Positions 7,466 to 52,953 are shown, numbered from the whole stretch's first letter. The stretch is DNA of 60,416 bases, filler included, from Sphacelaria rigidula (GCA_964200075.2; 8 parts of 8 records of this genome joined end to end with filler, not necessarily neighbours in it), one strand, 5' to 3'. Numbers and translations: made by a program. The notes: generated from the sequence alone by a model not told the origin.

Positions 7466-7565
7466 NNNNNNNNNNNNNNNNNNNNNNNNNNNNNNNNNNN
7501 NNNNNNNNNTTAATTAATTAANNNNNNNNNNNNNNNNNNNNNNNNNNNNNNNNNNNNNNNNNNNN
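7466..7565. other. Artificial scaffold linker 1
   Basis: N44-TTAATTAATTAA-N44, exactly 100 bp. Confidence 0.98.
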
Positions 7566-15030: not shown

Positions 15031-15130
15031 NNNNNNNNNNNNNNNNNNNNNNNNNNNNNNNNNNNNNNNNNNNNTTAATTAATTAANNNNNNNNNNNNNN
15101 NNNNNNNNNNNNNNNNNNNNNNNNNNNNNN
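15031..15130. other. Artificial scaffold linker 2
   Basis: Same 100-bp N/TTAATTAATTAA linker. Confidence 0.98.
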
Positions 15131-22595: not shown

Positions 22596-22695
22596 NNNNN
22601 NNNNNNNNNNNNNNNNNNNNNNNNNNNNNNNNNNNNNNNTTAATTAATTAANNNNNNNNNNNNNNNNNNNNNNNNNNNNNNNNNNNNNNNNNNNN
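22596..22695. other. Artificial scaffold linker 3
   Basis: Same 100-bp linker. Confidence 0.98.
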
Positions 22696-24489
22696 TAAAA
22701 AATGGGACGACAACATACACACACACATTACTGTCTGTACTGACTGTAGTGCTCGGACTGTTGCAATGAGCGCACCGCCTGTTGTACATCAAACTCTCAC
22801 GTATAAAAGTCTTGCGTTTGAAAGAAGGCCCGTAAAATCGCACACTAGTGCATCGTGCTTCGCCTAATATAATAAACTGGAATCACGTAACAGTCGTGTG
22901 AAAAGCGTGTGTTTGGCATGCTTATCATCTACGATCACTAGAGGACCCTCCGGTTCGAATTTAAAAAGAGTATGACAGGGGAGCTTGAAGAGATCAATCC
23001 CTGGGTGAACGGATTCTCCTGTCTCAGTTGCAGATGACCCTGTGCTGCAAACTTTACGGTAGGAGGAAAAAAAAGAATCAACAAGCCAAAAAAGTACTCC
23101 AGAAGGCCAAGAGAGGGCTATGACTATTGCTCGTGAATGAGAGAGGATGCGAGGGTTCTTCACCCCTATTTTGTGGGGGAGAAAGCCATACTTATCCACT
23201 CGATCACGCGCATTGGAACGCAATAACACCGCCGGGCAAGCCGCCGCTGTTCCCTCGTAGTAATTCAGGAACAGAAGAGGGAAAGAGCATTTTTGATCTC
23301 GTGATCATTCTAGCAGTCAACAAGACATAAGGTGGACTATCCGTCACCTGAGATCACGATACGGGCGCTCACGCTACCGCCAGGATATTTCCATGACGAT
23401 GGCCTGGGACGAACTCTTGAGGAGTGTGGCGGTACCATGTTCCTACTGTTGTCCGTGAACACATGCGCAGTGCGGCACACAACGGTTGTCGGCACCCGTG
23501 CCAACATGAGCGTTGTGTCCTCAAACTGTGTCATCATGAACTACAGCCGCTTTTCGCTATGTGTCGTGATTTTCGTTGAAAAATCCAGAAGAGTCTTGCT
23601 TGAGAGCGTTTACAGTTACGGGTTAGTGTCATGTTTCCCACCACCACCCCCAAAATGAAGACGCGACGGAGTCTAAGAAGTGTACAAAAGGTTATATAGC
23701 AACTAAATCAATACACAGCTGTAGTATATGTCTAAAGCTCCCTTCTGATCGTAGTCTGGCTCAATTCCACCCAGTACACAGCTCACAAACCAGTGATGGA
23801 TACCCCTAAAAAAAGTTGTAACTATTTGTACAAGAAAAAACGTCATTTTCCAACATGCCCGTCCTTCACGCGACACAAGATTACTCACTACTGACGAACG
23901 TTACAAAGCCGAAACTCTACAGGCAGGTACTACTAGGCACTAACCGTCGTTCAATTTCTGGCAGACTTTGATTGAGTGTCGAAACAGTGCAATATCCTCA
24001 GTAGATGATCTTCACTTCACCCCGACTTCCAATTTTTAGACAAGGGTGTTGGCCGCCAAGAAGTGGAGGACTGGAAGTGGAGGACTGGTAGGTACGCGTT
24101 TCATCTACACAGGGCAATTTGAATTATGTCGATAGTATCCGTGTGCGTCGAGATATTGCCATCTCGGTGACGGGTGTTATAACATGTGAGGTGCGCCGTG
24201 AAAACCCATCGGGTCACATGTGATATCCACATTGATCAGGTAGTAATTGCGCCGCGTCCACTTGGTTTGTAGCGTGGGAAATACCTTCTCCCGCAAGCAT
24301 ACATGCAACAATTAACATTGCCCGCCAGTGGGAAGGACGTTCCAGACATGTGCTTCTCATTGTCGCTGGGGCGGCGCATGAAGCGTGCTTACGGGATCGC
24401 CGCGCAAAGTGTAAACGACACTTGATTGATTGATTGATTATCTCACATTAGCTGGTTGCTACAATCCAGCCCGTGGTCAGGAGCAGCAA

Positions 24490-24800
24490 AAATAGAACAT
24501 AATAATAAAAAACAATAACAAAAAAGAAAGGAACAGAAAAAGACAGAAGCAACGGCCTCAGAAAGAAAAGAAAGGGGGCAGCGATGACAACAACAAAAAA
24601 AAACACCACCGCCACCACCACCACCACCAAGCGACAACAACAAGAACAACAACAAAATAACGACAAACATATACACAAACACAAGCACGAGCAACACAAA
24701 AGGATTATGATCGCGCATTACGTAGCTGACTGCAACAATCCAGCTCGTGATCAGAGGAAAAAAAAGGAGAAAAATGAAAAAAAAATTAAAGATAAGAAAC
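24490..24800. repeat. A-rich / (CAA)n / (CCA)n low-complexity tract
   Basis: Runs of ACA, CCA and A-rich simple sequence. Confidence 0.8.
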
Positions 24801-25699
24801 ACTCACGGTCTGCCGATTCCTTGTGTCGTCAGTGATACTGTAAGCTGTCGGAAACAAAAGAGAGATGCCACGGAAGCTGCTTCAGGGTTTGCTTCGAAGC
24901 ACACGAAGTCACATCGACTGTGCGGTGTGATGGGGACCGAAGTTTGGTGGGCAACAATGAAGGGTTAGGGACGGAAAACATCATCTGATGTCCCTCCATC
25001 GTGCAGCACTTGGAACTACTGTTCTGCGACATGGAGGATGGATTACGTGTTCCATCTTCATCACGTACCCGCCCCCCCCGCCACCATGACCACAGACCAT
25101 ATACACATCGGACCCCAGAAATTCGGTCATCGGATTTCAATCTTGTATGGCATGCAGAAATTGGTGATAGCCATCGGTACGCGAAGGAATGCAGGCATAT
25201 TTTTAAAAAATGGTCCACATATATGAAGATTGTAATAAACCGACTTATCATCGTCAATGAAAACCGTTGTCCTAAATTTTTCACGGTCGGTTGTTATCAC
25301 ACCAAATATTCGTGGCGGTTCGCCCGCTGTGCAGAGCGCTATGAACGCCGCCTCAAGACTGGAGTCCACGCGCGTGTGGTGGTCGTGTTGCACAGTATTC
25401 CATAAGGTTCTCTGCAACACCATGTCTTGATCATCATTTTCGCTTTATTAGTCGTTCGTTCCACTACTATCACGCATTATCTTGAGATACAACCGGCGAT
25501 TCGCCCAAGGGTGTCGCCGGACGACCCGCCGTAGACGTCTGCACACAAGGGCGCACTGCACCAGGCACTCTACAACGTCCCCACCAACCCTACGCACGGG
25601 TTGTAACATCCGTCTGCAGAAGATAACTCCAACGGTTACTTATATACCTACGCAACTCATCTGCACAAAACATGTCTACGACTTTCGCTACAGGTGCAA

Positions 25700-28600
25700 T
25701 CAAAACGCGAATTCGTCGTCGTGGTCTTTGCCCGCTTCCGATGCCGAATCCTCTTCCTCTGAGTCGCTACACTCGGAGTCCGAATCTCCAAGCCAGATCC
25801 CGGCTGAATGCTTCGATCCGCCCTCTGATGGACCATCTAGACCGCCGTCGCAACGACTGCAACTGGTAGGATCTGGTCCCGAATACGATTTCCCTTCCGC
25901 TACCCTCGCCATCCTCTCGCCATCTCGTCGTCAGCACTCCTTACCACGACTACTATCAACACCTGCCCCCGGGGCCTTCCTCACTCCATTCGCCTGCCCC
26001 CCGCCACGCAAAGCCGCTGACCCGCCCCTTCCACGGTTCGCCGTGGATCCGCCCCTCCCCTTACGAAGTTGCTCCGTCTCGAAAGGGATGCGTGGTCAAT
26101 GGTCAAACGACTAAGGCAAGCGACAAATGAGTACGCCCCCCCCTTACGAAGTCGGCGGGACGTATCGACATATCCTCCGCCGGAATCACCTGCAGCAGTT
26201 GCGTTGGTCGCTGGGTCAGGGGTGGCGGCAAAAAGCAGCGGCCCTGGCAACCGCAGCTCAGCGTACAATTCCCCAGACATCTGCAATCTCGGCGCCGGTG
26301 ACGTCTTTGCGCCGCCCTTTCCGGCTTGCACGCGCATCTCAGGGTTCGCACAATCCCGGATGTATCGACATACGTGTGGCTTGACGAGTATACAGCTATG
26401 TTGTCCCATGTAAGCTCCACCGCCCCTCTGCTCGCCGCCTTTACCCCACCCTTGTGGTGAGTCTTTTTTTCTGGTTCAACGCCCCATTTGCGCCCGTTGA
26501 AGTTCACTGTGGGCACGCTCAAAGCCCCCCCCCCCCCAGTATTTCAATACTGCGTCGGCCTTATCCACGTGCTTCTGGCAGGCGTCCAAGTCTTGTTCAC
26601 GAAAGACTCCAGATTATGCCCTGTCGTGGTGAAGAGATATCCAGGGTCCGCGGCGACTTGCGCAAATACGTTTTCGTACCTGAAGAAAAAAATCGTTGCC
26701 AGTAGCTTGACCCCCTCGTCCACCTCCGCCCTCGCCTTATCCTCGTCGATCACCACTATCGCTTTCGTGAACAGATTCGGCGTTCTCAGTGCCTTCAGAA
26801 CGAATTCCCACATCTTGGGGAAGGGAATCCCGGATACACGCGGCAGGAAGTCGCAGCCAGCCAATAGATAGATGAAAACGAACAGCACCACCTTTACAGG
26901 ATGCGTCAGCCAATCATACAGTCCGTCGGGAGGCCACGCACTTTCGCTATCGTCCCTCAGAGTCACGATTCCGCGGTACACCCTGTTCACCATTATGTAC
27001 CGGGGGCCTCCGTTCACAATGCATTTGACAGTCACCTGCACCGCGTTGGAGCCTTGGGGCTCGATATGCCCGCAGGACATGGCCAACAGGACAAGTATCC
27101 ACTGATCAGTATCAGTGGAAGTCACGAGCTATTTCTTCAAATGCTTCTGAAATAAAGTCCCGGAGTGAATGATAAAGTGCACTGCGGACATCTCCCCCTC
27201 ACCTATGCCGGGTCCGACTGCGCTTTGGATGCTCCGGTCAGGCCCCTTGCCATCACGCCACCACAACAGATGGGGTTGCAAGTCACCAATTGAATGGTGC
27301 CCCCCCCCCGCACGTGGTGATTATGGTTCTGCTGCCGCCGCTGTGTCCACGCTCCCGCTCTCTGATGACACCGCGAGAGACGACGGTGGAGTTGTCGAGA
27401 CCCCGCCGTCGGCGCCGACACCAGCGCGTGGCGCCGTTCTCGGCGCCGCCGTCGCCTCACCTGTTCCCCTGCCTGTCACCACCTCAAGATATGTCCGCGG
27501 GGGCGCCCTGGCCAGATCGCTGCAATCGACACCTCCGCCGGCCGCAGCTGCCGCCACCCGCGGCACCGCCGTTCTCCCCCTCCCCCCCCGCCCCGACCGA
27601 TGCCGCCGCTGAATTGCACCCACTGGCCCCCATCGAAACACTATCGCCGTAACCACTCGCACTCGACGTCTCTACCGCCGTTTCCGTGTCCACCGCCCCT
27701 CCCGGCAGCTCGCCCATCACCACTGTTGCATCCCACTGCTGGGCTCCACCCCCCTCTGTGCGTCCAAGAGCATCGGCGCGTCCCACCGCATATGCCATAA
27801 TCGCCGCCGGTGTCGCGGCCCCTCCTTCGACCGGTAACACCGCCGCCGCCGTCACCGCCACTTCTTCCGCTGCCACCGCCACCAACGCTTCTTCCACCGC
27901 TTCTTCCACCGCCGCAAACACCACTGCCATTTCTTCCACCGGAAGCCTTGGCGTGGAGCCGCTTCGGCCGGGCGGTATTTCACTACCGTACGTCAATATC
28001 AAGGGTCCATAGTGATTTTCGACCAATACTCGCTCGAAAACACCGCTAGCCAGATAGTTTCTCGCCTGCTTGCTGTTTCCCCGCAGCCAATTCTGGAAGC
28101 CTGACCCGCGGGGCAGGGCCTTGGTCGATGTGGGACGGGATGTCGTCTGACCCTTTCGCATCTTTTCTGTCCGCCCTCGCTGCTCACGGGCTTTGATTCT
28201 TCCCACGGCATCGGGGTCGTCGTGAGCAACTATCAATGACTCGGTCCCGGCGTCGGTCCATTCAGTATGCACCTTGTCGACATGGTAGCTTTCCACGGCT
28301 GGATAACCGCCCTCAGTCGCGGCCTGAGGAGGTTCGCGGTGGACCTCCGTCGCGTAGTCGACGGCATGACCCTGAGCTACGTAGAACGGGTCGAGCTGCT
28401 CGGCATCGGGGCAGGCGGATCGTATCCACTGATTCGCGACGCTCTTGTTGGAATGCCCTAAACCTGTAGGCAACGTGGGGGTGCGGTGATAAGAGAAAAG
28501 NNNNNNNNNNNNNNNNNNNNNNNNNNNNNNNNNNNNNNNNNNNNNNNNNNNNNNNNNNNNNNNNNNNNNNNNNNNNNNNNNNNNNNNNNNNNNNNNNNNN

Positions 28601-29200
28601 NNNNNNNNNNNNNNNNNNNNNNNNNNNNNNNNNNNNNNNNNNNNNNNNNNNNNNNNNNNNNNNNNNNNNNNNNNNNNNNNNNNNNNNNNNNNNNNNATCA
28701 CTACAAATATGTGCGAAAGCATCCGGCACTAGTGTACTGACGGTAAAAAAATCCCCAGGGTCAGACACAGCCAAACTGCAAGTTGCCTACGGCCGAGTGC
28801 GATGTGAATGTGCTCGTTTCCCGGTATTGTGTCCACTGCAACTCTGGTCAGCATGAGGTATTCCTCTCACCTCCGTTGGAATTGAGAATGCTGAATGGGA
28901 CGGACCCCCCGAGTTTAAGAAGTACCCTCTCCTTCTCCTCCTGGGAAATTTCGGGCGCCCCCACAATCCCTCTCAAAGCGGTCAGCAGCTCCTGCGTGTA
29001 CATGGTGTTGTTCTTGGTGTTGGACTTCAACGTCGACTTCCGGCCTTGAGTCGCCGTCGGTGTGGTTGTTGTGTTCTTTGGCGGGATGGTATATACCTTC
29101 TGCTTCGTTGCCCCCTTCTTGGTCTTGTCGCCCAACACGTAACACGCGATGTTGTCCTCCAGCTTTTTCTGTGACACGTCGGAGCAAGACAAAATGACAC
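25700..29200 (-). pseudogene. Decayed FEN1/XPG/XRN-like (PIN-fold) nuclease + CXC-domain gene, likely transposon-borne
   Basis: Ordered motifs on the minus strand: AVDY...IVAHDD...IKAREQRGR (27484-28722 frame); GIGEGEMSAVHFI...*LVTSTDTDQWILVLL (one in-frame TAG at 27129-27131); LLAGCDFLPRVSGI; KWG; RCACK...DCRCLGNCTLSCGCQGRC; acidic tail ending DDEFAF*. Contains frameshifts and an N gap at 28501-28696. Confidence 0.65.
26070..26143 (+). mobile_element. ~75-bp C-tailed short interspersed element, copy 2
   Basis: Same consensus as 14168; perfect flanking repeat CCCCTTACGAAGT at 26057-26069 and 26140-26152. Confidence 0.9.
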
Positions 29201-30160
29201 ATCGGTTCGACTCGTGCGCCGGTGTGACCGTCGGCGATGTCCCTCACATTTTCCACCGGTGCTGCACATTCGGCGTGCGTCAGGGAAGATCCACTTTCGA
29301 CCGCGGATGTGGCATGTGTCGGTCGAGATGGAGGCGACAATGGTGCAGACACTTCATTACCTGCCCGGAATAGACGGGAAAATGATAGATTGACGCAACG
29401 TATCAGTCGTGTAGTCTTATTTGTTTTTAGATTGCAAAAGACACGGGTTCGTGTGAAATGATGATATCCCGGAACGTGGGCATCCTCAATTTAGTTCAAA
29501 TATCACAGTCATCAGCGGGAACAAGAGGAAAGCAATCAGATGAGCTGGGTCTTCAGCACCTCTATTTCGCACGGTGATAGTGCAAGAGGGGTATCGGGGT
29601 GCTCTTACCTCGAGACCGATTGCGGTGCCGTATTTCATGTTCGGTCTGCCCCGGCCGGCGTCTCAAAAGTGCTCCAGACGTTGCACCCCAACCGTGAGTC
29701 TTGGGGATCTTCCACATCTACGGTCAGCGAATGCGCGTGGGAGTGGATGCGTGTAGGACCATACGTCGATTATTTTTATTATAGGTATCTTCAATCGTGC
29801 GGTTATCATGCTGTACTGTCCAACGATAACGGGGTTTTGGTTGCCGCGCCATCTAATGTCATGATCCTGCATGTGATCGTCGTACTGATGTACTGTCCAA
29901 GTTCACAACTCGAAATCTGTGTCGTTCATGAGTCTGATAATCTCGCTCCACGGAGGAGGTCGTCCGAACCCGAGTGCAGGATTCCAACATGCCATCGATG
30001 CGCAATAAAAAGGCGCCATGTGGGATCAATACTTTTCTTCATGGAGTACCTACCCCGCAGAATCACACATGACCCACGGCCGCATGTCGCTCATCGTGAA
30101 TGCGGGTGGCTTCGACAAGACCGTGACATAACTACAACGGTACTGTACACACTGTTTCTT

Positions 30161-30260
30161 NNNNNNNNNNNNNNNNNNNNNNNNNNNNNNNNNNNNNNNN
30201 NNNNTTAATTAATTAANNNNNNNNNNNNNNNNNNNNNNNNNNNNNNNNNNNNNNNNNNNN
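30161..30260. other. Artificial scaffold linker 4
   Basis: Same 100-bp linker. Confidence 0.98.
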
Positions 30261-34206: not shown

Positions 34207-37200
34207 AAATCGGCTGTTAAGTCGTGGTTACATAGAGTACACCGTCCTTGGCTTTCAAGAGTAATATCCGTCGACTTGATTTACTCAAAATATTCCGCGG
34301 TATGGCCAGCTAGTGATGGTTGAGAGTTCGTGCCCCGATCCGGGGGAAAATGTCACGTCGAAGAAGTGTGCCGACGCCCAACGGTACACCATCACACTGA
34401 CGGTATTTTCTAGCCGTTCGTACAATGGGTGGTTATTCCTGGCGAAGTTCATGTCCAGCGACGACGGGCTGATATAGGGTGCGAGTTCATTGGCAATGGA
34501 TTCAAGGGCTACTGCCATCGGACAGGAGGAGTATTGCTGAAGTACGCCAGCACGAAGATGCCACAACAAATAGGCCTATCCTCACCCGTTGGGAGAATGC
34601 TCGCAGCTAGGGTCCGGTGGATGCTCGCCGACAGTGGACGGCCAACCTTCCTCTGGAGGAAATTGATGTTCATGGCGGCGTATCTTGCAAACAGAGCATC
34701 GCATTCCGCGCTCGACACGCATTTTCAATGCAGTACATAAGGGGACGGAACCAGATCTACGATATCTCTGCATGATTGGAGCGAGGGCTTTTGTACATGT
34801 CGAGAGGCGCACCCGAAAAACTCGCTCTCAAGCTAGCTAAAATCTGATGGGTTGGGTACTACGACGACAGCAAGAATCACCTCGTTTACGCCCCGACCAC
34901 CCGACGTATCATGGAGAGCAGGAGCATCGCCTTCATCTAGACGCCATCACGTCTTGTGCCCCTGTGGGAGCCACAGCTTCTGATACATCAGCTTCCACCT
35001 CGCGACGAGGCGCTTGGCCACAGAGAGTGTCACAGCTACACCACCGACGACGGCTTTCTGCGCAACCTTCGCGACCACACCTTCGTACGAGCTCAACCGG
35101 CCTGTGTCTCTACCCATCATGTCACTACCAGCGGGGTCTCGAGCAATCTACAGGTGAATGATTTTCTCGAGAGAAGCAGCACCATCACCAGGAGGAATAT
35201 GATAGGAGACGATTCCCAGTCTCACTGAGGGACGCTGTTAGCATGAGCCGAAGGGCAGTGAACCGCCGGAGCAACCCGTGAAACCTCCGTAGGACGAGGT
35301 TGGCGACCCGATGGAGATACCACCAGCCGGATCACCGCCGCTCCAACATTTTCAGCACTCGTGCCACAAAGTAACGTCAGCGTTGACACCTGCAGGTATT
35401 CCAGCGCGCTCCTTCGGTGAGCAGAATACCACCTACAGCCCCGCTTTCACTCATCTTGAAGCGATCACCGACGACAACACTCTCTGCGAGCTGCGGCGGC
35501 TGGGACTCGCAGCCATCGCGCTCCTGCTGGATACCGTGCATATAGACGCATGAAGCAGAATCCATTGTGGAGAATGCCTGCACAATGACAGGCTTCTCAA
35601 ACTATTCGGCGGGGGATAAGACTGAAAAAACCCCGAACACATTCATGGAGGTCATGAGCCTGCCGGAAAAGGAACACTGGAAGGCGGCCTTAGACAAAGG
35701 AATGGCAAGACTCGAGACCAACAACGTGTACACCCTTTCACCGGCTACCTCCGTCCCAACCTGGAAACGAGGTGATTGATTTTCTATAGGTCTACAACAG
35801 GGAAGTAGACAACTCCTCCAATGGTCAAACCGTCATTCTGGGCTGGGAGCAAGGCCCCGGCGTCGACTGCGGCAGGACGTTCCCTCCGGTTTGCAGGATT
35901 CAGAGGATCCACATGGTGTTTCCCATAACGACGGAGTACAACATAGAGTAATGGCAGCTAGACGACAAAAACTTCTTTTTGAATGAACTTGAGGAGGAAA
36001 TGTACGTAAAAATAGCGACAAGATACGAGGAGTTTGACACCAACGGAATTTCGATGGTAATAACGCTCCGAAAAAGTCTCTACGGCCTTCGTCAAGCCCC
36101 AAACTGCTGATGGGGTACGGTCGACAAACATCAGGCGAAGATCGGACCCCAGCGTATGATCCCCTCGGAGAGCGGTGATGTCTACATATTAGCCTTGTGC
36201 GTGGATGACGATACTACGAGGGAAAGAGCTCAAAGTGTTGGAGAAGATCAAGCGGAAACTGAAGGGACGTTTGTCGAATACCAACATGGGAGGCGTGTCG
36301 TTGTTGCTCGGATTGGAAGTTGCCCGTGACCGCAAGAGAAAGACGGATAGTATTCACGTGGAAAACCAGACCAAGCTGCAATCCAGTGTACACTCCCAGG
36401 GTGAGACAGGGACTCTCACCAGATCAGTGGCAGGAAAAGATAATGACCGGTGGGAGGCAAGCAGCGCTGCCAGGCCATCACGGACAGCGTTATGTACTTC
36501 GGACGGGTGACTCGCTAAGCGGCATTGAGTGCGCCGTTAATCAACTAGCGCAGGCTATGTCCAAATCGTTCACGGCACGCATGGCAGCCAACCCCCTACT
36601 CCGGTTTCTGACCGGGACGATGAACCACAAGATAGATGATGTAATAATCGGCTGCTTCAAGCTGACAAAGTTACCGACGCAAATTGGGTAGCAACCCGGA
36701 CAACTGGAAACCATATTTATCATACCTTGTCCTTCTTTCGCAACACTCAATCAGCTCGAAGGCGGGGCCACAAGGGCTGGTGGAGCAACCGATCATGAAA
36801 GCTGGAATCGCGACCGCAGCACGAACCGCGAAGGGTGCCGCATTTCGCTCGAACATGCTGCGCGAGCTGGACTTCTGTACGCGCGTCGACTGTGTTCCCG
36901 TCTACATCTACAGCACCTCAAGTTTTCAGGACGTTGAAACCGGACCCTCAACTCGCGAGTCAAGCTCACAGCTCCATGGTACTTCTTCATCCAGGAACTG
37001 ATCACGGAGGGAAGAATCAGCATTCATTTCGTCCAGAACGGGGGCCAAGTTGCTTGAGGAGTTCATGGAGTCAACGCTTCGTAACGTGGTGTGCTGTGTG
37101 AGATCAGGGGGCAACTATAGCAGCGTCTTCAGATTGGTGCATATGAAGTAGGAGATGGGGGGGAGTAGAACCATGGATCACCGCGGACTGTCACCGACAT

Positions 37201-37725: not shown

Positions 37726-37825
37726 NNNNNNNNNNNNNNNNNNNNNNNNNNNNNNNNNNNNNNNNNNNNTTAATTAATTAANNNNNNNNNNNNNNNNNNN
37801 NNNNNNNNNNNNNNNNNNNNNNNNN
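37726..37825. other. Artificial scaffold linker 5
   Basis: Same 100-bp linker. Confidence 0.98.
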
Positions 37826-45289: not shown

Positions 45290-45389
45290 NNNNNNNNNNN
45301 NNNNNNNNNNNNNNNNNNNNNNNNNNNNNNNNNTTAATTAATTAANNNNNNNNNNNNNNNNNNNNNNNNNNNNNNNNNNNNNNNNNNNN
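45290..45389. other. Artificial scaffold linker 6
   Basis: Same 100-bp linker. Confidence 0.98.
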
Positions 45390-46278: not shown

Positions 46279-48697
46279 TTGAACCCATATTTGAAAGGGA
46301 GCTCGAGCTTCTCTCCCAACAGTGGCGTCGACGGCAGTCGCGGGGTGAACATAGCTGATGACCACATTTCTCCCTGCAATGTAAATGTGCCACAGAATGC
46401 CCGAGCCAAGCTAGGCGAAGGAGCTCAAACCTTCAAGATTAAGAAGGCGGGGCTGGACCGCATATTGGGTGAAAAAGCGTTGGTGGCCCAGCGATTAGAT
46501 GAAACCAAGGCTCAGTTAAAAGCGCTTGAGACACAACAACAACAACTGGATCATTCAGCCACCGTTGAAGAGGCGGTAGTCAACCAAGCCCGTAAAGAGA
46601 GGGAAGTTCCTCCTTCCAAGTATGGGCAGAAGGCCAAAATTCTGCCGAAACGGCTCGATCCTTCCAGCTTACAACGGCACCAGCAGGGGGTCAACAAAGC
46701 CGGGGGTGGAAAGAGGACTCCAGGGCCCAAGGTAGATCCCACTTCTATAGTTGAGATGGCCCCGGTGCAGCCGCACCACAATCCAAATCCTGCCACCATC
46801 GAAGTAGGAGGGGTGTCCATCACCATTGATGACTCCCGGTTCCTACAAGGGACTTGTCCCCAAGGTGTTCGTCTAGTAGAATTGCACCATGTCCAGCTAT
46901 TCCGGCGGTATGTCGAGGCACTAGAATTCGGCACCCCGCTGCACTCGCCTCCGGGACCAAGAGAGATCATGGATAGCTGGGATGGGAGCAGGGTCTCAGA
47001 CGCCGGGCAGGGATGGGCAGCCCAGGTACTATGCTGGAGGACATGAGTCCAGAAAGAAAAGGTATGCCTCACGTACAGTAGAGAGGACGGACTTAAGTAG
47101 TAATAGGGACAGAAGCGTGGCACCTGACTCGAATGTAGCTAGAGTAGTGTCATCAGACCCGGTTGCAACTACAACTGTTGTCCCGTCTACTGCTCCTGTC
47201 ACAGTAGTAGCTCAAGGTAAAAAATCATCCGTCACAGAAAAAACTGCAGTAGACATAGCACGGGAATATGCCAAAATGGACACTTCTGTCCTGATTGAAT
47301 TACCAAAATGACCTTTGAGCGTAAATCATGACGTGGCAGACTTGGTTGCGTTTGGAGCAGCTCTCCGTGATTCCATACAAGATATGCGCATAATTGTGGG
47401 GGACTCTGAACCCATTTATTGGAAAAGAGGGTGGGGAAAGTGTCTACAGGAACATCTTCTCAGGGCACTTCGTGGAAAATCTTACCACAAGTCTCAAACT
47501 ATTTCCACATTAAGATCGCAAATATTTGATATGACAACGGGAGCAATAAGAATGCAAGAAGCGGGATCAACCGGACCTGAAGCCTTCGACCATGTGCTGC
47601 GTATACTAAGTAGGGCACTCAGTAAGGTCACGCCCGCAGGAGTAATGGGACTGTTGGTCAACTTTACGGTTGAACCTGACACCACTATTGCTACATATTT
47701 GGCGGAGTTGAGGATGTTGGTAGCGAACGTTCAAAGTGTTGGTCGCGAGTTGGCTCCTGGTAATGGCTCAATACAATCCGACATTAAAAATGGTATAGAC
47801 GATCAGTTTCCCAACATAAGTGCCCAAGCTTTCGCTGGTAGATATCATCAACCTCTCCCCTTTCACGATGTCGAACAAATGATGAATGCCCTTCGTGATT
47901 TCGACACGAACACGTCAGTAGCTGTAGCTCCTTCGCGTTTCGGTACTGGCAGTGCGGGTGGTGTAGTCACCATATCTCGACACTTCGCTAAGGCTTTACA
48001 CAGTCGCAAGTTTGGTGGAGTCATGGCGATCTCGGAATTATACGAGGAAGAGGATGTAGAAATGCAACATGTCCATTCCATTGGGGCGGGACAAAACCAG
48101 CGTTTTGGGAAAAAGGGTCGTGATCCTCCTTTCTTTGAACCTTTTTCCTCTATGGAAGCAAAGGATGCTGCTCGCAAAGCATTCGGACCGTTCTGTTTGA
48201 ATTACGGTAGTTCCGAACACATACTGGCTCGGGATCGTCCCCATGAGTATATGAATAAATCGGGTATAATACATCGTGGGATTGGAGAAGAGTCCCTCAA
48301 AAAAGTTTCCGAAAAATGGCGGAGGTGGCAACGTACATCGTGCGATTACCATCGTAACAGAAACAACAATTGAAGATGCAACGGTGAAGATCGGGCACCT
48401 TCATCGTTCGGAGGCCAAAACAATAAATCTTGCATGAAAGACAGGCTTACGTTTTGAAAAGACCAGAGATCCCTCTGATACCGCAGTCCGTGATGGCGTA
48501 GACGTTCTCGTATATTTGGCGTACAGGCTAACTTGTGCTTTGCTTGTCGAGATGCATAGTCCAAAACGCTGTAACACATGGGGGCAGCCAGCTCAATCTA
48601 ACCACACAATGTAGTATGGCCCATCAGGTACCAAGCATGACAGAGTATGACACATGGAACCTAGTCGACTGGAAAATGACCAATAAATCTGTAATAG
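46279..48697 (+). mobile_element. Unclassified retroelement-like region with a disrupted gag-like ORF
   Basis: Consecutive ORFs 46279-47046 (coiled coil), 46982-47311 and 47315-48373; decayed CCHC-like knuckle CLNYGSSEHILARDRP; the downstream segment is repeated at 40150-40440. Confidence 0.55.
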
Positions 48698-52853: not shown

Positions 52854-52953
52854 NNNNNNNNNNNNNNNNNNNNNNNNNNNNNNNNNNNNNNNNNNNNTTA
52901 ATTAATTAANNNNNNNNNNNNNNNNNNNNNNNNNNNNNNNNNNNNNNNNNNNN
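52854..52953. other. Artificial scaffold linker 7
   Basis: Same 100-bp linker. Confidence 0.98.

Follow-up and report, generated by a model that had tools for sequence, protein, structure and literature searches.

We analyzed a 60,416-nucleotide stretch of DNA from the brown alga Sphacelaria rigidula (GCA_964200075.2), referred to in its full length as the window, and describe a minus-strand locus in it, running from 29168 to 25700 (coding sequence to 25703, then the stop), that carries the remains of a nuclease gene ending in a cysteine cluster and an acidic tail. The window does not come from one continuous chromosome segment: unplaced scaffolds, each some 7.5 kb long, have been strung together artificially through 100-bp N44-TTAATTAATTAA-N44 linkers that carry a stop in all six reading frames and lie at 7466-7565, 15031-15130, 22596-22695, 30161-30260, 37726-37825, 45290-45389 and 52854-52953. 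Reading of the N runs places the nuclease locus on the physical scaffold 22696-30160, with artificial linkers on both sides and an internal N196 gap at 28501-28696. Sequence beyond 22696-30160 is physically unlinked to the locus, and arguments from gene neighborhood are therefore invalid past those bounds.

An earlier interpretation of the window made without database searches, here called the sequence-only reading, had pointed to an ordered series of mostly acidic motifs on the minus strand. Direct reading and tblastn both confirm that the motifs are real and stand where they had been placed: AVDYATEV (28342-28365, acidic position 1), LIVAHDD (28216-28236, acidic position 2), the basic motif IKAREQRGRT (28168-28197), GIGEGE (27192-27209, acidic positions 3 and 4), TSTDTDQW (27099-27122, acidic positions 5 and 6), LAGCDFLP (26841-26864, acidic position 7) and NFNGRKWG (26481-26504). 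We do not regard them as products of chance, because residues 21-421 of the related protein P0001, also from S. rigidula, align by tblastn to 27305-26172 with 63% identity over 408 amino acids (E 8e-157), and because the motif columns are conserved across the alignment of the family. By tblastn, the window covers the C-terminal approximately 700 residues of this family.

The first recognizable part of the gene is a linker exon preceding the nuclease (KKLEDNIACY...FSILNSNGG, 28871-29168, minus strand as throughout the locus), which was delimited by reading the splice sites and by tblastn with P0052 and with P0009, whose residues 219-332 fall on 29195-28866. A probable acceptor AG lies in front of it at 29170-29169, and a GTGAGA donor stands at its end. 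The exon is followed by a canonical GT-AG intron of compatible phase (28464-28870), which holds the N196 gap, so that its span in the assembly is not its true length; the spliced product ...NSNGG/GLGHSNKSV... agrees with ...NATGGAKHATK... in the relatives. The gene, which had been called intron-poor, is thus not intronless, having this canonical intron and the probable acceptor at 29169/29168. The N-terminal part of the nuclease with AVDY, AHDD and IKAREQRGRT occupies 28012-28463, as seen in the family alignment and by tblastn with P0004 (residues 1135-1284 on 28464-28012). The N half of the nuclease is separated from the I half by the GC-rich, low-complexity spacer that had also been noticed before, rich in Ala and Gly and located by direct reading and alignment at about 27321-28011. 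The GC content of the locus is above that of its surroundings and stands at 0.639 in 27001-28000. The spacer is several times longer in the window than in the relatives, is broken by a stop at 27484-27486 and by frame changes, and corresponds to residues 200-223 of the relative P0006, which are disordered in the AlphaFold model of that protein.

Downstream of the spacer, tblastn and the alignment recover the segment HLLWWRDG...GPGIGEGEMS (27132-27320), with a plus-strand C10 homopolymer at 27300-27309, followed by an in-frame TAG (27129-27131) in place of a Trp that is conserved in the relatives (KKW-LVTS; family alignment and tblastn). GEGE and STDTD are in the same frame with only this TAG between them, as the sequence-only reading had it. 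We also considered GEGE as an intron donor (G/GTGAGG) and rejected it: P0001 reads through in frame as GEGE or GEAE, and so do 17 to 18 of the 19 rows of the alignment that are not gapped at this place. The nuclease core with TSTDTDQW and LAGCDFLP (26547-27128) was delimited by tblastn and alignment, its fold coming from the structure search, in which the stretch containing LAGCDFLP aligns to the C-terminal half of EXO1 and FEN1. Next comes a lesion zone (26525-26613), which lacks about 18 codons of P0001; the reading passes into another frame (DLDACQKHVDKADAVLKYW), a TGA occurs at 26544-26546 and the frame is regained in a G13 run, seen on the plus strand as C13 at 26525-26537. The CXC-like Cys cluster (26235-26339) retains eight of the nine Cys conserved in the family, the third being Arg, and the gene closes at 25700-25801 with a conserved acidic tail (GIWLGDSDSECSDSEEEDSAS...DDEFAF, 25703-25801) and a stop codon (25700-25702); P0001 residues 508-628 align here, on 26074-25703, with 46% identity.

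The degenerate C-terminal linker between the Cys cluster and the tail contains an approximately 73-bp unit with C runs on either side (26070-26143), with a direct repeat at 26053-26069 and 26136-26152. In all four sequencing runs bearing the same organism label, the summed contig depth over this unit is 100-500 times that over the rest of the gene, and the run contigs show many joints going back 67-75 positions, along with loose ends rich in C. The 73-bp stretch has the look of one unit of a very abundant short repeat, tandem or dispersed, which has either landed in the linker or arisen from it. About 900 bp downstream of the stop codon, on the same scaffold, lies a purine-rich low-complexity block (24440-24835) of A/G runs and AACAACAA-type repeats, in which no coding signal was found.

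When the window copy is set beside P0001 and the aligned family, it proves to carry a TAG for Trp, the deletion of about 18 codons, several frameshifts and a Cys-to-Arg replacement, and a further stop lies inside its C-terminal linker. The copy is a dead and incomplete pseudogene from which no protein can be made. Its relatives form a family whose named members are all from brown algae. A search with the 194-amino-acid core open reading frame (ORF) of the locus returned 9 longer relatives at E<=0.001 among 957 candidates, the named ones coming from Sphacelaria rigidula, Pylaiella littoralis and Ectocarpus sp., with P0001 as the best match (72% identity to the core ORF). HMMER with P0006 as query gave 243 representatives at E<=0.001, mostly fragments, 33 of them at <=1e-30. 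The family is dispersed within genomes: Ectocarpus sp. CCAP 1310/34 has seven members on seven different contigs and Pylaiella littoralis six on six, and thousands of short contigs of 90-99% likeness span the whole gene in sequencing runs drawn from several studies, as many as 28 contigs covering a single variant site. A profile search for wider relatives with alignment A4 gave 10 matches, none of them named outside brown algae, and none of 110 pattern matches among metagenome contigs was confirmed as a relative.

The nature of the nuclease was approached through P0006, modeled with AlphaFold from alignment A1, so that all fold results refer to this relative and not to the window copy. The model (predicted local distance difference test score [pLDDT] 74.2, predicted template modeling score 0.73, 316 residues at pLDDT >=90) has the fold of the FEN/XPG/XRN 5'-nuclease superfamily over its whole catalytic domain. 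Foldseek against the Protein Data Bank (PDB) gave 44 matches at E<=0.001, and those listed were all XRN1/XRN2/Rat1, EXO1 or flap endonucleases, the best being XRN1 (9e70_A, 6.5e-9), EXO1 (2.5e-5) and FEN1 (2e-4). With VIA-align, 118 of 1000 chains reached Z>=8, the matches covering model residues 33-512 or 33-554; they included EXO1 (3qe9_Y, Z 16.1, root mean square deviation 3.3, 273 residues aligned of a 345-residue chain), FEN-1 (1rxv_A, Z 15.1; archaeal and human FEN1 about 15), Xrn1 (3pie_A, Z 15.0, 353 aligned; Xrn1 and Xrn2 about 15 with 353-363 aligned) and XPG (6tur, Z 13.8; XPG/Rad2 range 12.6-13.8). The Z values are thus tied between the XRN and Rad2 families, and the Foldseek E values and longer aligned lengths lean toward XRN in this model. 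Seven acidic columns (D, D, E, E, D, D, D) hold Asp or Glu in 9/11, 11/13, 18/19, 17/19, 20/20, 19/21 and 22/24 of the rows not gapped at the respective column, and none of the seven has been lost from the window copy. The likeness to the Rad2 family (FEN1/EXO1/XPG/GEN1) and to XRN1/XRN2 lies in the fold and in seven acidic positions standing in the same order. XPG has a variable spacer between its N and I halves, as does the brown-algal nuclease, and the GEGE and G-x-DFLP-like motifs of XRN resemble the brown-algal ones. The sequence-only reading had proposed an XRN/FEN1-like PIN-fold nuclease, and the structural comparison, not any sequence model, bears this out.

The same fold and order of acidic motifs could be taken to mean that the locus is a degraded housekeeping gene for XRN1/XRN2, FEN1, EXO1 or GEN1. 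This explanation is effectively refuted. No XRN_N, XPG_N or XPG_I Pfam match was obtained at E<=1 for any of five window pieces or for P0004, P0006, P0001 and P0009, and searches of the PDB by sequence and by the A1 profile found no FEN or XRN chain, giving only low-complexity or chance matches such as mistletoe lectin (E 0.017). The structural alignments have only 10-16% identity. The brown-algal domain has no detectable likeness to the known enzymes at the level of sequence profiles, is multicopy rather than housekeeping, and lies between a transposase-like DUF6589 region, to which it is fused in relatives, and a terminal Cys cluster. The two outcomes that would have spoken most directly against the sequence-only reading, a single-copy housekeeping XRN/FEN1 orthologue or the absence of a PIN fold, are not what we found.

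The Cys cluster that follows the nuclease consists of nine conserved columns with the pattern C-x-C ... C-x2-C-x-C ... C ... C-x-C-x3-C. The spacing resembles that of Zn3Cys9 CXC domains, among them the Tesmin/TSO1 CXC domain (CRC; TCR, PF03638), from which the family differs in a longer loop from the first CxC to the third Cys. In a protein Atlas, the nearest neighbor of the combined nuclease and Cys module was a molluscan cluster with TCR on 36% of its 66 members (score 0.94), and the second nearest was a mostly arthropod cluster of 1399 members automatically named 'Tesmin/TSO1-like CXC domain-containing protein' (score 0.93); we treat these neighbors as a lead and not as a test. From the pattern of its cysteines, the cluster is probably a zinc-binding DNA-binding module of the CXC type.

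The link to transposition comes from the upstream half of the full-length relatives, which belongs to Pfam DUF6589 (PF20231), a domain with no function given in Pfam and one that does not occur on the scaffold of the locus. P0004 (Nemacystus decipiens, 1802 amino acids) and P0009 (Ectocarpus) each contain a DUF6589 region and the nuclease within one protein. The upstream half has 55 brown-algal relatives, and 16 of the 18 that were aligned match the Pfam model (best E 3.6e-12; P0160, 31.1 bits against a cut-off of 27), P0004 itself staying under the cut-off with 22.3 bits. In the Atlas, 19 of the 30 clusters nearest to the upstream half are DUF6589 sets from arthropods, cnidarians and Mucoromycota (best score 0.95), and these sets are large and multicopy. 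When a model of the DUF6589 region (pLDDT 66.8) was compared with 48,161 chains, the sole match at Z>=5 was the Drosophila P-element transposase (6p5a_A, Z 6.9, 236 aligned), and Hermes ranked seventh (Z 3.4). Judging from this model, DUF6589 is a probable transposase of the DDE/RNase-H type. The full-length P0074 and P0004 (residues 1-560) have an additional conserved N-terminal region before DUF6589, which in P0074 includes stretches rich in Cys and His; the P0074 gene model seems to jump from the N-terminal region directly to the end of the nuclease.

A transposon origin is supported because the nuclease is fused to DUF6589 in relatives, because brown-algal genomes have several loci each and because the window copy has decayed. 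These same observations bear on the idea that the family is a host one, its transposase-nuclease having been domesticated by brown algae for a cellular task in the processing of DNA or RNA, and that the window copy would be a dead paralogue. One member, which represents 27 sequences, does bear the name 'expressed unknown protein [Ectocarpus siliculosus]', the gene has canonical introns, and the family is conserved in several brown-algal orders. However, a domesticated family sits poorly with many loci per genome and fragmentary gene models, with the decay of the window copy and the many diverged short contigs that cover the gene in sequencing runs, and with DUF6589 clusters that are large and multicopy in arthropods, cnidarians and Mucoromycota; we consider domestication unlikely, while regarding it as the most serious of the alternatives.

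The sequence-only reading had left the choice between a transposon and a viral insert, and only the transposon part of it stands. Brown-algal genomes carry phaeovirus insertions, and the elevated GC content of the locus would suit a part of an integrated giant-virus (phaeovirus-like) genome or another viral insert. Against this, a scan of 2.9 million viral contigs with alignment A3 gave 34 pattern matches of which tblastn confirmed none, the gene contains a spliceosomal intron, and the upstream partner in the relatives is DUF6589, a domain of eukaryotic transposon type. A viral source is therefore very improbable.

The architecture of the relatives points to a particular kind of transposon, the AcademX lineage of Academ, a superfamily of eukaryotic DNA transposons (Kapitonov & Jurka 2010; Kojima 2020, Mobile DNA 11:15). 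According to PMC10045372, AcademX elements encode a nuclease and AcademH elements a helicase, and AcademX makes target-site duplications (TSDs) of 3-4 bp. Two other papers put the mean Academ length in bivalves, where Academ has expanded, at about 5.6 kb (PMC10294476) and describe Academ as most abundant, among fungi, in the Pucciniomycotina (PMC5751038); a paper on Fanzor lists only 'RecQ Helicase in Academ'. A transposase and a nuclease in one protein, as in P0004 and P0009, is the architecture reported for AcademX, and this supports the transposon reading. The resemblance extends to a brown-algal family that is multicopy and decaying, to an element size implied by the 1800-residue ORF that fits the Academ mean quoted above, and to Atlas clusters nearest to the nuclease and Cys module that are molluscan or arthropod, bivalves being the animal group reported as rich in Academ (PMC10294476).

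The Cys cluster might instead suggest a transposon of the KDZ/Zisupton type, whose transposases have CxC zinc clusters, rather than one of the Academ type. KDZ elements carry TET/JBP genes. A preprint on the rust pan-genome lists DUF6589 and Tet-like oxygenase domains side by side among those enriched in rust fungi. Pfam models of the KDZ transposase and of CxC1-6, however, gave no match in P0004, P0006, P0001 or P0009 (E<=1) or in 18 members of alignment A2 (E<=0.01); the Pfam model that does match is DUF6589, and the Cys cluster is C-terminal, behind the nuclease. We regard this assignment as decidedly improbable, though less so than a viral one.

We therefore consider it likely that the locus is a pseudogenized and incomplete copy of the 3' half of the one large gene carried by a cut-and-paste DNA transposon of brown algae, of the DUF6589/Academ-like kind. 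The intact protein would consist, in order, of an N-terminal region, DUF6589, the 5' nuclease, the nine-Cys cluster and the acidic tail. In such a protein the transposase part would cut and join the ends of the element, the fused 5' nuclease could act on 5' flaps or on the second strand, either where the ends have been excised or at the target site, and the Cys cluster might hold the DNA. We infer both the catalytic activity of the nuclease and its role in transposition. More tentatively, and as a proposal that we think somewhat more apt to fail than to hold, the nuclease and nine-Cys module may be an undescribed, profile-invisible branch of the FEN/XRN nucleases, at least as near to XRN as to XPG, that DUF6589 (Academ-type) transposases took up and that then spread among the brown algae, with intact proteins such as P0006 and P0004 being active fusions whose processing of second strands or flaps might explain the short TSDs of AcademX.

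Several observations weigh against the transposon interpretation or parts of it. The first group concerns the element itself. No terminal inverted repeats or TSDs were found on the window scaffold, which holds part of one copy, by repeat search or inverted-repeat alignment. Decayed inverted repeats around the gene, suspected in the sequence-only reading, did not survive scrutiny: the alignment of 24975-25300 with the reverse complement of 29710-30140 scores 18, a value reached by 122 of 200 shuffles (mean 18.4, standard deviation 2.1), and a separate repeat search found no such pair. The scaffold stretch 29200-30160 gives no homology by tblastn with the relatives, and no DUF6589 half is present on the scaffold; because that half is absent from this unplaced 7.5-kb scaffold, the transposase link for the window copy is one made through its relatives. 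The decay is also open to some doubt at the frameshifts in the homopolymers at 26525-26537 and 27300-27309, which could be assembly errors, because the run contigs vary in length at homopolymers (with indel variants at 26527-26529); the TAG at 27129-27131 and the deletion of about 18 codons are not explicable in this way.

The second group concerns the assignment of the domains. On the tool's own scale the Z of 6.9 with the P-element transposase is middling and the match suggestive only, and Foldseek of the DUF6589 model against the PDB gave nothing at E<=0.001, its top rows being helical proteins, FPPS among them, with E values no better than 0.06. Neither Pfam XPG nor Pfam XRN matches any of 37 family proteins (28 A1 members at E<=0.1 and 9 more at E<=1) or the family pieces of the window. 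The seven acidic residues would form the two-metal site of FEN1 and XRN1 on the grounds of their order and the modeled fold. The CXC zinc domain of the sequence-only reading holds as a nine-Cys cluster after the nuclease, but Pfam TCR matches 0 of 37 proteins, so that its CXC character depends on spacing and on the Atlas lead; in the P0006 model the cluster has a pLDDT of 53-65 and lies outside the part covered by the fold searches. We infer membership in Academ from the described architecture of that superfamily. Kojima in 2020 reportedly described the AcademX nuclease as an XPG-type enzyme in fusion with the transposase, whereas the brown-algal nuclease matches XRN no less well than XPG. Taken together with the evidence above, the sequence-only reading was essentially right.

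Two features on other scaffolds of the window complete the description. ORF fragments at 35546-36691 (plus strand) resemble a Copia-type pol by eye (...YILALCVDD...); they have no Pfam match at E<=0.001, and we make no claim for them. The longest open frame of the window, at 47312-48370 (plus strand), spans 353 amino acids from stop to stop and has no Pfam match.

Our results mean that the locus itself is ordinary genomic debris, which should be masked as a repeat; annotation as a repair gene would be wrong. At the level of the family, several hundred proteins left blank by Pfam would gain a predicted fold and a likely activity, that of a 5' nuclease that depends on metal and has a Cys cluster behind it, and DUF6589 is tied to an accessory enzyme, a nuclease, in a brown-algal family. 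In the literature that could be searched, no report of Academ elements in Ectocarpus or other brown algae was found, and this is probably the first Academ-like element noted in these organisms. The finding thus points to the presence of Academ-like transposons in brown algae, whose copies annotators of Phaeophyceae genomes would otherwise call orphan genes. A transposase with a built-in nuclease of the FEN/XRN type would also offer a tractable system for studying how the length of target-site duplications is determined by accessory nucleases.

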